Origin: an uncultured Myxococcales bacterium
Lineage (GTDB): Bacteria; Myxococcota; UBA727; JABDBI01
Direction: 5' to 3'
Assembly: GCA_964368985.1 (NCBI GenBank)
Contig: CAYJDW010000002.1
Coordinates: forward strand, 28,171-92,170
Length of the DNA stretch: 64,000 nt
The notes under the pieces are model-generated. The model made no database searches and was not told the origin of the DNA. It saw only the letters and a program-made list of their open reading frames with translations. Each line of letters begins with the position of its first letter. The stretch's first letter is position 1. This document shows, piece by piece, positions 28,320 to 31,358 of this stretch. The position numbers and the translations under genes are program-made.

Positions 28320-31300
28320 GTGACCAAAATAATTCAATCGCAAGCAAATGGGCTTATTAATAAGTGCGAAAATTCACCCACGCAAATGGCATTAGCAAAT
28401 AAACTAGAAAATGAAATAAAAGACCAAAGTTTGTCCTCACTAAAACTGTTTGGCATGCAGCTGAGTGGCCTTGATCTTAAGCAGATAAATCAAGCCCATT
28501 TGTCGGTCAATATTCCCCTAGAGACCGGCCGGAAAAAACTCATGGGAGTGAATAAAAATGCCCGCATTAAAATTCGCAAAAATACGACGGCGGTGGCACA
28601 ACTTGCATTAGGGCGCAATGAAAAAAATCAGCTCTCTTTGAAGAATTTTTCTTTGCGATTTAGTAAAAGTATTGTGATAAAAAATCCGGTCTCGTCCTTA
28701 TTAAGTGAGAGCAAATTTGCGCCACGGAGTTCAGCTATTAAAGATAAATTAGTGGACCTAAAAATCAAAGGCATAAATATTAATGAAGAGGGCCAGGTTT
28801 TTGTTAACGGGCATATTAAGGCATTAAAAATTTTGAATGCGAGTTTACCACAAAAGAAAAGCGCTCTAAAATTACCAGTGTTTGATGAATCATTATTAGT
28901 ACGCTTAGGTCTGGTGCCCGCACGCGATGGCAATGCAAAAAATTTATTATCCGGCTTGGGTGAACAATTTAATGTTAAAACTTTCCTGCAACAGTTAGGA
29001 TCAATCACCAAGGTTGCACCATATTCTTTATCAATTTCGGGTGATCCGACTCTCGTTGCATTTTCCTATGACAATCGAAACTTTCACGGGAAAAATACGC
29101 CCCTCGATTTAAAAATATCCGGCACGGTTGACCTCGAAAGCCAGGGAGATCTGGTGATTGTAGTGGATAAAAAACCGCAATCATTTTCACTCGGAACCTA
29201 TGCAGTAGGTGCACAAATGCGCCTCGAGGCTGCAGCTCAGCCGATTAACCTTAGCGTGGCTGCGGATATATCCGGGGCTTCTGACGGATTATTGATCGAT
29301 GGTTTTAGCCGAGAAAGTGTAAAAAAAGTATTTCCACGACGACAAACTCAGCAAAGGGTTGTGAAGGAAGTCGAGGAGGAAGTTGTAAAAATTCCCTATG
29401 AGATTGGTGCTGAAGAGGTTCTCATAAATGCCCGACTTGAGATGAAAGCATCTTTGAGTCCCGGAAAAAATTCGATCACTGGTGCTATGATTGGGGAGAT
29501 GATTGCTCGAAATCCTTATGCCAAAATTGAAAACAGAGGAGTGAAATTATCAGGTCAAGTTTCAGCTCTTCTTAATTTACAAGAATTTTCTTATCAAGAA
29601 ATTTCAGGTCTCAATGGCACCAAATCATCCTTCAGCCTGGGGCTGAGCCCCGACCAAAAAACTCTCGACCAATTTCCGGGCCTGAAACCTTTGTCGTTGG
29701 AATATGGCTTAAAAATGAGAGCCGATAATAAAGCCACCATAAAAGTACCGGAATTGGGAGCAGTACGCTTTGTCCGTCCCGTTAAAAATATGGAAGGGGA
29801 CCAAAAACTTGTCGACACTATTCATACCCGTGAAAATTTTCATCCAATCGGAAGCGAGAATTATTTCAAACAGCTTAACAAAATCACCGGATCCGAAGTG
29901 CGAGATGCAAGCGAAGTGAAGATTCTTATCGACGGTATTAGCTCGATGCCAGAGCGTTTAGAATTGATGGAGCACGCGAAAGAATATATTTGTTTTCAAA
30001 CCTTTGAATTTAGCGATGATGATTCAGGCTGGCGTTTCGCCAAGGCTTTGGTTGAAGCGCGAGAAAGAGGTGTTAAGGTTTTTGGTATCATTGATTCATT
30101 GGGCAATATTAAATCGTTGAATAGCCTCGAGAAAGAAAATCCGATTTATGAATATCTTAGTACTCATGGGGTCTCGTTAAAAATTTATAATAACGGTTTT
30201 GAAGAGGGAATAAGAAAAATTTTTGCCGTGGCTAAACGCTATCCCACGGTTTTTGCGCAATGCGAAAAGAAACTTCATAATATTTCCGATTTGCTGGACC
30301 ATTTTCAAAAAATCGGCAGCGTGGTTGTCGATCCGAAGTCTCCAATCGAACCTAGAGACCGACTTGAATTGGCCCATGCCATTCACCGTTTATTTGGTGG
30401 AAAAGCAGAGATTTCTCCTCACGATTCAGTAAACGAACTTAACCAAATATTGGCAAATCCCTTGATTGATTTGCGAGAATTGCTTTTGGCTCTGAAACGT
30501 CTAGGTGATATTAGCTACCGGAGCCATGAAAAATACCTCATTGTCGACGGCGTAGAAGCTATCGTTGGGGGTATGAATATTGCTGATGAATATTTGAAAG
30601 GGGGAAGTGGTGAGCAGGTTATGATCGATGGGAATTACCGCACTGCTTTTCGTGACTCGGATGTGAAGCTTAAAGGTGATGTGGTTCGGGATGCTTATCG
30701 GAGTTTTCGACGCAACTGGTTGTTTTTGGCGGCGGAGCGCTTGCCTTTTAGTGCGAAGATTAATCCACAAGCTCAGCACGGCGTGAAAGTAAGCATGCTG
30801 CAGAATCGTCCATGGGAAGATGGTGAACATAAACTGGTGAATTTTCTGCTTTATAATTTGAGAACCCTAAAACGGGGTGAGAAAGCGTGGTTTGAAACTG
30901 CCTATTTTTTGCCAACTGGCGTGTTAAGGCCGCTACAAAAAGAATTAGTGAAAGCCGCTGAACGCGGTGTGGACGTGCGGATTCTGACCAATAGCGAGAA
31001 GAGTACCGATTTTAAGCCTTTAGTAGAGGCAGCGGTTTTTGATTATCGCCAACTGCTTAAAGCGGGCATTCGCCTTTTCGCCCGCACGGATGATCGGATG
31101 GTGCACGCCAAAGTCGCGCTCTTTGGTGAGGAACTAACGACTATCGGTTCCTGCAACTTGGATAATCGGTCGGCAGCTCATGATACCGAAGACATTTGCG
31201 CTATCTATGATCAAAATATAAATCAACAGATGACTTCGCAATTGTTGATCGACATGTTTGAGCAATCAAAGGAAATCCACTTGGCAGATATTAAAGCCTT

Positions 31301-31358
31301 GCCTTTGGGAGCCGAGATAAAAGCCGCCGGCATGCGATTATTGGGCGAACTGCTTTAG
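28320..31358 (+). CDS. Large two-HKD phospholipase D/cardiolipin-synthase-superfamily protein with an uncharacterised roughly 500-aa N-terminal region
   Basis: HKD motif 1 is HEKYLIVDGVEAIVGGMNIADEY. HKD motif 2 is HAKVALFGEELTTIGSCNLDNRS (HxKx4Dx6GSxN). No signal peptide. The 37-bp gap to the upstream ABC gene suggests co-transcription. Confidence 0.75.
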   Translation: MTKIIQSQANGLINKCENSPTQMALANKLENEIKDQSLSSLKLFGMQLSGLDLKQINQAHLSVNIPLETGRKKLMGVNKNARIKIRKNTTAVAQLALGRNEKNQLSLKNFSLRFSKSIVIKNPVSSLLSESKFAPRSSAIKDKLVDLKIKGININEEGQVFVNGHIKALKILNASLPQKKSALKLPVFDESLLVRLGLVPARDGNAKNLLSGLGEQFNVKTFLQQLGSITKVAPYSLSISGDPTLVAFSYDNRNFHGKNTPLDLKISGTVDLESQGDLVIVVDKKPQSFSLGTYAVGAQMRLEAAAQPINLSVAADISGASDGLLIDGFSRESVKKVFPRRQTQQRVVKEVEEEVVKIPYEIGAEEVLINARLEMKASLSPGKNSITGAMIGEMIARNPYAKIENRGVKLSGQVSALLNLQEFSYQEISGLNGTKSSFSLGLSPDQKTLDQFPGLKPLSLEYGLKMRADNKATIKVPELGAVRFVRPVKNMEGDQKLVDTIHTRENFHPIGSENYFKQLNKITGSEVRDASEVKILIDGISSMPERLELMEHAKEYICFQTFEFSDDDSGWRFAKALVEARERGVKVFGIIDSLGNIKSLNSLEKENPIYEYLSTHGVSLKIYNNGFEEGIRKIFAVAKRYPTVFAQCEKKLHNISDLLDHFQKIGSVVVDPKSPIEPRDRLELAHAIHRLFGGKAEISPHDSVNELNQILANPLIDLRELLLALKRLGDISYRSHEKYLIVDGVEAIVGGMNIADEYLKGGSGEQVMIDGNYRTAFRDSDVKLKGDVVRDAYRSFRRNWLFLAAERLPFSAKINPQAQHGVKVSMLQNRPWEDGEHKLVNFLLYNLRTLKRGEKAWFETAYFLPTGVLRPLQKELVKAAERGVDVRILTNSEKSTDFKPLVEAAVFDYRQLLKAGIRLFARTDDRMVHAKVALFGEELTTIGSCNLDNRSAAHDTEDICAIYDQNINQQMTSQLLIDMFEQSKEIHLADIKALPLGAEIKAAGMRLLGELL

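Follow-up and report, generated by a model that had tools for sequence, protein, structure and literature searches.

A phospholipase-D-type enzyme fused to a new all-beta domain and encoded behind a C39-peptidase ABC exporter in uncultured myxobacteria-like bacteria

We describe a 1012-residue protein in which a phospholipase D (PLD)-type enzyme is fused to a new all-beta domain, giving a new domain architecture, and which represents a lineage-restricted, previously undescribed family in uncultured myxobacteria-like bacteria. Its gene lies directly behind the genes of a type-I-like exporter, an arrangement that recurs across divergent members of the family. We propose, with a probability of about 45%, that the protein is a membrane-docking enzyme that cleaves or transfers phospholipids and that it is exported by, or works together with, this exporter. 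A literature search returned no account of the PLD family or of a closed relative genome.

A two-domain protein of a new family

The open reading frame at 28320..31358, on the forward strand of the 64,000-nucleotide stretch that we analysed (the window), as are all features located below, is a real, conserved gene. It begins with GTG, includes its stop codon, and is preceded at a distance of 5 nt by a ribosome-binding site, AGGAG, read directly from the sequence at 28310..28314. The GC content at its codon positions is similar to that of the neighboring genes, and JGI metagenomes hold a protein identical to the 1012-residue product. Promoter and terminator scans gave results at chance level, and neither tRNAs nor Rfam families were detected in the window.

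The C-terminal half of the protein is a PLD unit of cardiolipin-synthase-like descent. The Pfam models PLDc_2 (PF13091, two matched stretches, 106 bits with a cut-off of 27) and PLDc (PF00614, 23.7 against 21.9) place it in the PLD (HKD) superfamily, it has the bilobed alpha/beta PLD fold, and the closest NCBIfam HMMs, at E 1e-34 to 1e-30, are those of cardiolipin synthases; the AF2 model has a pLDDT of 85 and a pTM of 0.78. The first lobe (29898..30731, residues ~527-804) carries a helical insertion (30192..30515, residues ~625-732), delimited from secondary structure, HMM stretches and inference, which the best-matching parts of the cardiolipin-synthase models do not cover, and the second lobe (30783..31355, residues ~822-1012) ends where those models end. 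The first-pass annotation had read both catalytic motifs as HxKx4D, which holds for only one of them. HKD1 (30525..30578) is canonical and complete in its spacing (H736-E-K738-YLIV-D743-x6-G750-G751-M-N753), whereas HKD2 (31104..31166; H929-A-K931-VALF-G936...G943-S944-C-N946-L-D948-N949) is the variant HxKx4G, in which Gly936, invariant in the family, replaces the motif Asp that cardiolipin-synthase outgroups keep; H929, K931, G943-S944 and N946 are retained. The His, Lys and Asn residues of both motifs are invariant or near-invariant in the 16-28 members aligned. In the PLD superfamily, the two HKD histidines form and resolve a covalent phosphatidyl-histidine intermediate while the lysines bind phosphate and, by analogy, His736 and His929 would perform the former role and Lys738 and Lys931 the latter.

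Comparison with the cardiolipin synthases ClsA (TIGR04265) and ClsB (NF008427) reveals both kinship and clear differences. The two-HKD bilobed unit is common to all of them, with the alignment running to the C-terminus of the models, and our protein resembles ClsB, which has no transmembrane helix, in lacking one as well. In contrast, the cardiolipin-synthase cut-offs are missed by a wide margin (119.9 against 290 for TIGR04265, 103.9 against 787 for NF009107, and 109.9 against 281 for NF008427), HKD1 has HEK instead of HRK, HKD2 has Gly for Asp, lobe 1 contains the helical insert of ~100 residues, and the protein has an additional N-terminal beta domain of ~490 residues and an operon shared with an exporter. 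The N-terminal transmembrane helices of ClsA are also absent, as indicated by the lack of a PF13396 (PLDc_N) match and a hydropathy maximum of 1.1.

The N-terminal half begins with a poorly conserved extension (28320..28430, residues 1-37; pLDDT <50), whose extreme end is semi-conserved in the alignments as M-[TPK]-[KRS]-[IV]. The new all-beta domain follows (28437..29747, residues ~40-476). It is an amphipathic beta-meander of long antiparallel strands, arranged in runs of about five followed by helix or loop linkers, and its strict alternation of hydrophobic and polar residues is seen across the family. N122-P123 does not vary in any of the four family alignments (A1-A4), P186 is invariant in A1 and A4 and G268 in A1 only, and the N-terminal half has a net charge of +19. 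This half had been described in the first-pass annotation as unrecognizable, a view that our searches bear out: the whole protein gave no Pfam, NCBIfam or PADLOC match there, Pfam at E<=1 on the N-terminal halves of 14 members found no match, lipid-groove families included, searches of PDB sequences, run with the protein itself and with an N-half profile, gave only chance-level matches to this region, and no PDB fold matched. Neither a housekeeping domain nor the membrane anchor of a cardiolipin synthase, the identities that would have argued against an effector, turned up in these searches. The secondary-structure map suggests a possible likeness to the beta-taco or repeating beta-groove folds of AsmA/TamB and to LolA-like unclosed barrels, which have similarly long amphipathic antiparallel strands, but the domain differs from these in having no Pfam match (14 members, E<=1) and no N-terminal membrane anchor. 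It resembles membrane-type beta sheets rather than DNA-binding folds. The sheet made by these ~440 residues is open and curved, and we propose that it docks on, or takes lipid from, an anionic membrane and hands the phospholipid to the PLD site.

With a threshold of E<=1e-3, an exhaustive search recovered 46 cluster representatives, mostly 890-1130 residues long, so the N-terminal half is not an orphan. The family count comes from this search; a word-indexed homologue search, run with the full-length protein and with a family profile, yielded little besides the query itself. All the full-length copies found come from MAGs labelled Myxococcota or "Bdellovibrionales", apart from one in a MAG that is labelled "archaeon" and probably mis-binned. 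One MAG contains two paralogues (L009 and L010).

Linkage to an exporter operon

Three exporter genes precede the PLD gene: an HlyD-like membrane-fusion or adaptor protein (23359..24225), an ABC subunit with an N-terminal C39 peptidase (ABC1, 24227..26242), and a second ABC subunit (ABC2, 26244..28283), whose true start is likely M25 of the listed open reading frame 26172..28283. Their top models are TIGR03794 (NHLP-system secretion protein, 107 bits, cut-off 156), TIGR03796 (262 against 853) and TIGR03797 (180 against 709), respectively, though all three genes miss these equivalog cut-offs. The C39 peptidase of ABC1 is well supported (PF03412, 89 bits against 22), and its catalytic residues Q14, C20, H93 and D109 do not vary among 7 orthologues, which implies a cleavable peptide substrate; the N-terminal ~170 residues of ABC2 are weakly C39-like and have no Cys. 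Gene make-up and order are the same as in the NHLP/Nif11 bacteriocin export trio of TIGR03794, TIGR03796 and TIGR03797 (Haft et al. 2010, PMC2887384), namely an HlyD-like protein, an ABC protein with C39, and an ABC protein without peptidase. The difference, beyond the missed equivalog scores, is that no NHLP/Nif11 or other GG-leader precursor lies nearby and that a gene for an enzyme of 1000 residues is joined to the window operon instead. A regular-expression scan of all open reading frames of at least 25 residues in the window and five related loci identified no small GG-leader candidate; its only three matches were antisense or intragenic and implausible. Neither a GG-leader precursor nor an immunity-type gene was found in or near the cluster in these six loci. 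No TolC-like gene was present among the scanned window reading frames of at least 150 residues up to 52401. Downstream of the PLD gene, a small, unassigned membrane protein is encoded on the opposite strand.

The position of the PLD gene right after the exporter genes had been pointed out before, and it is no local accident, as the order HlyD-like protein, C39-ABC, ABC2, PLD occurs in about 13 distinct loci. The full four-gene order is seen in the window, L004/L083, L006, L007, L008/L100, L016, L086, L087, L088, L091 and L094, while in the contig-limited L005 and L093 only ABC2 is visible upstream of PLD. Between the ABC2 stop and the PLD start there are only 36 nt in the window and about 40-90 nt elsewhere. 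Since PLD identity across the linked loci falls to 27-28%, the link to the exporter is ancient. A neighbor-joining tree places the exporter-linked copies in two separated parts, the clade of the window and L008/L016 beside an unlinked clade, and the link thus looks ancestral. Between ABC2 and PLD, L008 has a gene for a phosphoesterase of PF04185 (phospholipase C/acid phosphatase family).

The linkage is incomplete. In a second clade (clade B), the exporter is not adjacent to the PLD gene and the neighbors include no consistent functional partner; about a dozen more distant members adjoin unrelated genes (Dus, DksA, an ECF sigma factor and a methyltransferase), and the L003/L092 sublineage of the window's own clade has no exporter upstream. 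Additionally, the whole neighborhood of the locus, rpsA-miaB ... serS-GST-rluD, is collinear in these genomes, so that part of the exporter-PLD adjacency may be inherited synteny.

As for targeting, the protein has no Sec signal, GG leader or RTX repeats, in agreement with the first reading of the sequence and now supported by hydropathy, motif scans and alignments. There is no transmembrane helix in the PLD protein (maximum Kyte-Doolittle 19-residue mean, 1.1), no hydrophobic region or Sec/Tat signal at its N-terminus, and no GGxGxD (RTX) repeat. Its first 690 residues contain no GG pair, and the N-termini of 14 members, when aligned, show no conserved G[GAS] site of a GG/GA/GS leader; the conserved Gly45 there follows F/M/L/N and sits within a predicted strand. 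At the C-terminus, 17 residues make up a confidently predicted helix, which belongs to the PLD fold and coincides in the alignment with the end of the cardiolipin-synthase models; for this reason, the terminal "GELL" was rejected as a candidate type I signal. By these features, the protein would be classed neither with RTX type I substrates nor with double-glycine leader substrates, and it is gene linkage that suggests its secretion.

Possible functions of the PLD protein

According to the reading that we prefer, the protein, whose gene closes an ancient operon of four genes (HlyD-like adaptor, C39-peptidase ABC, second ABC, PLD), would be a two-domain, membrane-directed phospholipid phosphodiesterase or transphosphatidylase and either the cargo or an obligate partner of the type-I-like exporter. 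Once exported, it could act on membranes outside the cytoplasm, whether those of a prey or host cell or the cell's own envelope. This reading is favored by the PLD and cardiolipin-synthase scores, the conserved motifs, the conserved basic N-terminal domain, the exporter linkage, the PF04185 gene in L008, and the absence of Sec/Tat signals and transmembrane helices; against it count the missing export signal alongside conserved C39 catalytic residues, the incomplete linkage, the lack of a TolC-like gene among the reading frames scanned, and an HKD2 without the motif Asp. Large two-HKD proteins that have no Sec signal and are encoded beside secretion machinery are also known among effectors associated with secretion systems, such as the type VI secretion (T6SS) Tle5 proteins PldA/PldB of Pseudomonas aeruginosa, and Klebsiella PLD1. 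The last of these offers a precedent, being presented in the source as a PLD that resembles cardiolipin synthases and whose gene lies in the locus of a secretion system (PMC4068068). In our case, however, the neighbor is an ABC/HlyD exporter, no immunity-type gene is adjacent, the PLD belongs to a different (Cls-like) lineage with an unrelated N-terminal domain, and no T6SS VgrG, Hcp or PAAR domain occurs among the scanned window reading frames of at least 150 residues up to 52401. We also entertain two more specific and rather doubtful proposals: that the heterodimeric C39-ABC/HlyD machine exports the ~113-kDa PLD by a signal that is neither double-glycine nor RTX-type C-terminal, which would constitute a new cargo class and recognition mode with the N-terminal domain as a membrane-inserting or lipid-groove module delivering phospholipid to the PLD site, or that the PLD phosphatidylates the peptide cargo of the exporter.

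The main rival, which we hold to be possible but less probable than our preferred reading, is a role in lipid remodelling without export, in which a soluble or peripheral inner-membrane transphosphatidylase similar to ClsB alters the phospholipid head groups of its own cell. Co-transcription would then reflect conditioning of the membrane for the exporter (e.g. self-protection against an exported membrane-active peptide) or nothing more than inherited synteny. ClsA/ClsB-type synthases are indeed the best HMMs, aligned through the last residue of the models, the protein has no export signal of any known kind, and an active C39 domain suggests a different, peptide cargo; furthermore, many members lie among housekeeping genes without a nearby exporter, the locus is flanked by core genes in genomes of 2.3-2.5 Mb, and a basic N-terminal half would fit the anionic cytoplasmic leaflet. 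Yet the scores are far under the cardiolipin-synthase cut-offs (120 against 290; 110 against 281), the diagnostic positions differ in both motifs, the extra domain of ~490 residues is absent from any known cardiolipin synthase, two paralogues in one MAG are unusual for a housekeeping synthase, and six loci have neither a GG-leader precursor nor an immunity-type gene within or close to the cluster.

A different connection to the exporter is conceivable but improbable: the PLD could move a phosphatidyl or other phosphodiester-linked group onto a ribosomal peptide that the C39-ABC pair then cleaves and exports, yielding a lipidated RiPP-like product. PLD-superfamily enzymes catalyze transphosphatidylation to alcohol acceptors, the four-gene module combines an intact leader peptidase with no obvious cargo, and the precursors of NHLP-type exporters are often encoded at a distance from the exporter (PMC2887384). 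To our knowledge, however, PLD-type peptide lipidation has no precedent, and clade-B members have no exporter. That no precursor was found within the loci also speaks against this idea.

It is very unlikely that the protein is a PLD-family nuclease, the alternative raised in the first-pass annotation; such an enzyme, of the Nuc/NucT/DrmC/BfiI/Zucchini kind, would serve in defence or as a DNA-degrading toxin. Weak matches to DrmC (E 2e-8 in NCBIfam, 6.6e-9 in PADLOC) and NucT (E 3e-3), Nuc 1byr as the only PDB sequence match (E 0.49), and the basic N-terminal half would be compatible with such a function. Nevertheless, the cardiolipin-synthase models (E 1e-34 to 1e-30) match better by more than 20 orders of magnitude, the nuclease family cut-offs are missed (17 against 297 for NucT, 34 against 133 for DrmC), there are no restriction, DISARM or other defence genes nearby, and the N-terminal domain is like membrane-type beta sheets, not DNA-binding folds. 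PLD-family nucleases usually have a single HKD lobe that dimerises; the DrmC and NucT matches cover one lobe each, and our protein has two.

Implications

Our findings add to the PLD superfamily a new family defined by a new architecture and a diagnostic active-site variant (HEK, HxKx4G). They also pose a puzzle, namely an ancient operon link to an ABC exporter that contains a peptidase and for which the expected peptide has not come to light. If the PLD protein is exported, the cargo range of peptidase-containing exporters would extend to large enzymes, and export would also point to a weapon against phospholipids, or a tool for remodelling the envelope, in little-known myxobacteria-like bacteria with small genomes. 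Without export, the protein would instead be a candidate lipid-modifying enzyme of a new kind, coupled to the export of peptides.

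A two-part member of the PLD superfamily

As the first-pass annotation had it, the PLD gene lies at 28320-31358 and its product has 1012 aa. It is on the plus strand and starts with GTG, with a ribosome-binding site (AGGAG, 28310-28314, plus strand) 5 nt before the GTG. Its codon-position GC is similar to that of adjoining genes, and JGI metagenomes contain an identical protein, on contigs of up to 1.25 Mb. Converging on the PLD stop is a gene for a small membrane protein without family assignment (31355-31882, minus strand; 144-175 aa); most relatives keep this gene beside serS, and it is absent in L007, L086 and L087.

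Pfam finds two stretches of PLDc_2 within the C-terminal half, at 106 bits where the cut-off is 27. The first of the two HxKx4D motifs claimed earlier stands, while the second reads H929-A-K931-VALF-G936 and is thus HxKx4G. This glycine is invariant across the protein's own family, in contrast to the Asp kept in cardiolipin-synthase (Cls) outgroups, and motif 1 is HEK in the family versus HRK in the outgroups. When this half, previously left between PLD, Cls and nuclease-type enzymes, was compared with NCBIfam models, cardiolipin synthases ranked first: TIGR04265 (E 1.4e-34; 120 bits against a cut-off of 290), ClsB NF008427 (E 1.5e-31; 110 against 281) and NF009107 (E 8.8e-30; 104 against 787), with alignments extending to the models' final residue. 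Since these models lead but all score far below their cut-offs, the PLD half is, as judged from sequence, a true PLD unit with two lobes and a Cls-like origin and, by curated models, not a cardiolipin synthase; assignment to a Cls equivalog was rejected on these scores. Lobe 1 appears to carry a helical insertion (residues ~625-732) outside the best Cls-model stretches.

The N-terminal half, which had been described as without recognizable relatives, is indeed empty in Pfam over the first ~525 residues. It has no match in NCBIfam or PADLOC, and PDB sequences gave none either, also when searched with a profile of 14 members. An exhaustive representative search with residues 1-540 returned 46 clusters at E<=1e-3, 11 of them at E<=1e-30; the matched proteins are mostly 890-1130 aa long, indicating that the entire two-part architecture is conserved in the family. 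All four family alignments (A1-A4) share an invariant N122-P123, whereas P186 is invariant in A1 (16 members) and A4 (14 members) and G268 in A1 only. The extreme N-terminus (28320-28340) is semi-conserved (MTKI-, MKKV-, MPKI/VE-, MPRV-, MPSI/V-) and is followed by a polar, variable, low-confidence linker of 20-90 residues, then by the first conserved strand, G-x-x-I-x-G-L-D. A structure model predicts disorder at residues 1-37, 204-216 and 333-354 and nearly all beta structure over residues ~40-476. Many of the strands are 12-16 residues long, and about five strands at a time follow one another before helix or loop linkers intervene. Hydrophobic and polar residues alternate strictly along these strands family-wide, and the half has a net charge of +19. 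We interpret the model as a beta-meander that is open, curved and amphipathic, has no counterpart among solved structures and possibly resembles lipid-groove folds.

Distribution and linkage to an exporter

In the GTDB set, where a single genome stands for each species, full-length matches are confined to MAGs that bear the labels Myxococcota, Myxococcales, Myxococcaceae, Deltaproteobacteria or Bdellovibrionales, apart from one "Methanobacteriota". The contig of the latter (L008/L100; JABDBI010000003.1) has the same order of miaB, exporter, PLD and serS as Myxococcota-labelled loci, and its MiaB and SerRS are ~55% identical to theirs; because of this common synteny, the archaeal label is probably a mis-binning. 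The nearest relatives come from genomes of ~2.3-2.5 Mb, including the closed genome CP060221. The fullest name on record in the sources is "PS/PGP/cardiolipin synthase-like", and the literature searched holds no description of the family.

Upstream of the PLD gene lie genes for an HlyD-like adaptor (23359-24225), a C39-peptidase ABC subunit (ABC1, 24227-26242) and a second ABC subunit (ABC2, 26172/26244-28283), whose stop is 36 nt from the PLD start. The listed ABC2 start at 26172 overlaps ABC1 by 71 nt; orthologues begin 24 codons later, at a Met (26244) two bases past the ABC1 stop. The best models of the three proteins, all scoring well below cut-off, are TIGR03794, TIGR03796 and TIGR03797, the NHLP-bacteriocin export trio defined by Haft et al. 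2010 (PMC2887384). The ~170 N-terminal residues of ABC2 lack the Cys but align weakly and collinearly to the C39 domain (25% probability in hhalign, E 8e-4), which is only suggestive of a relationship. In L001, a metagenome copy from the same organism, ABC2 (7855-9961) is spread over three frames and the HhH-GPD gene is likewise split, probably through assembly errors.

The order adaptor, C39-ABC, ABC, PLD is found in the window, L004/L083, L006, L007, L008 (=L100), L016, L086, L087, L088, L091 and L094; in the contig-limited L005 and L093, only ABC2 is visible upstream. Together these make ~13 distinct loci. Their GC ranges from 29% to 51%, and identity between PLD proteins is as low as 27-28%. 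In a neighbor-joining tree of PLD halves rooted on P0034, one of six Cls outgroups, the family is monophyletic with respect to all six, and exporter-linked copies fall in two separated parts: the window clade, and L008/L016 beside an unlinked clade. On this basis the linkage looks ancestral, although flanking housekeeping genes are collinear in these genomes too (rpsA-miaB upstream, serS-GST-rluD downstream). In the L003/L092 sublineage a DUF308-like gene replaces the exporter, and in clade B, about a dozen distant members (L009-L015, L017, L021, L095-L097; L009 and L010 are paralogues within one MAG), the neighbors are unrelated, such as Dus, DksA, an ECF sigma factor or a methyltransferase.

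Other genes of these loci

At L008, a 544-aa PF04185 phosphoesterase of the phospholipase C/acid phosphatase family (8189-9823, minus strand) lies between ABC2 and PLD, a second phospholipid-directed enzyme at that locus. The nearest PLD-only relative, P0006, has 491 aa, the HEK motif and a second motif with Asp; a gene for a 218-aa TPR-repeat protein follows, its start overlapping the P0006 stop (L089 8001-10132; L090 2926-5057), an arrangement reminiscent of an effector-immunity pair. A 102-aa ORF without family match (23100-23408) overlaps the start of the adaptor gene and has a TM-like motif, WIWLLxLWxIKxIxKKKSSQSSGLPIF, in common with the 112-aa ORF that L004 has in the corresponding position (4809-5147).

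Between miaB and the exporter operon are an ABC exporter gene (18794-20641, minus strand) and a gene (20841-22460) whose 539-aa product matches no family and has a hydrophobic, signal-like segment at its N-terminus. L083, L087, L088 and L091 lack both, two of them having another gene instead, so this stretch looks like a local insertion. Elsewhere, a protein of 887 aa containing 11 DUF4215 repeats (35696-38359; E 8e-77) has a homologue at the same place in L083, and two tandem SNF-family (sodium:neurotransmitter symporter) genes (39227-41963; mutual identity 47-50%) are kept in L086, L088 and L091. Four ORFs of 400-515 aa have no Pfam family at E<=1e-4 (5908-7422, 8417-9808, 10322-11530 and 45211-46758).

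Candidate functions

The protein belongs to the PLD superfamily and would resemble PLD/Cls-type phosphatidyl transferases in its working. Both His/Lys pairs are present in the bilobed catalytic unit; phosphatidyl-histidine intermediates are general to the superfamily, and catalysis would proceed through one. With Cls and Pss enzymes as the nearest relatives, the substrate would be a glycerophospholipid, and the basic beta domain may dock on an anionic membrane or extract lipid from it. As for a nuclease, DrmC (E 2e-8) and NucT (E 3e-3) match far more weakly and over one lobe each; membership of the PLD nucleases was rejected, and we regard a nuclease role as the most improbable of the named readings.

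As previously noted, the protein has no signal peptide, GG leader or RTX features: its N-terminus is not hydrophobic, it lacks GGxGxD, and no GG dipeptide precedes residue 693. Nor was a TM helix detected (19-residue hydropathy maximum, 1.1). We infer export from the gene linkage together with the absence of other targeting signals; the protein would be exported by the upstream system or functionally coupled to it. The standard cargo classes were rejected. Inspected N-termini reveal no GG/GA/GS leader in any family member, and the nearly invariant Gly45, preceded by F/M/L/N, lies inside a predicted strand. As for an RTX substrate, the C-terminus is a confident helix that belongs to the PLD fold, according to the structure model and HMM alignment. 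No TolC-like gene was found among window ORFs scanned up to 52401.

An exported enzyme that attacks membranes or acts on the envelope is our leading reading, at a probability of roughly 0.45. A non-exported lipid-remodelling enzyme, compatible with the Cls-like descent and with the unlinked copies of clade B, is the main rival and seems somewhat less likely. The catalytic Gln/Cys/His/Asp of C39 are invariant in every orthologue examined. One would therefore expect a cleavable substrate of the double-glycine type, and the PLD protein might lipidate such cargo; no small GG-leader ORF was found in or near the cluster at six loci, and we consider this very unlikely. The remaining probability goes to some other function. 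None of the family libraries or papers searched describes this domain architecture, the HEK/HxKx4G signature or the pairing with a C39-ABC exporter in one operon. There is a low but real chance that either the exporter handles a new class of cargo through a new recognition mode, or the PLD enzyme phosphatidylates the exporter's peptide cargo.
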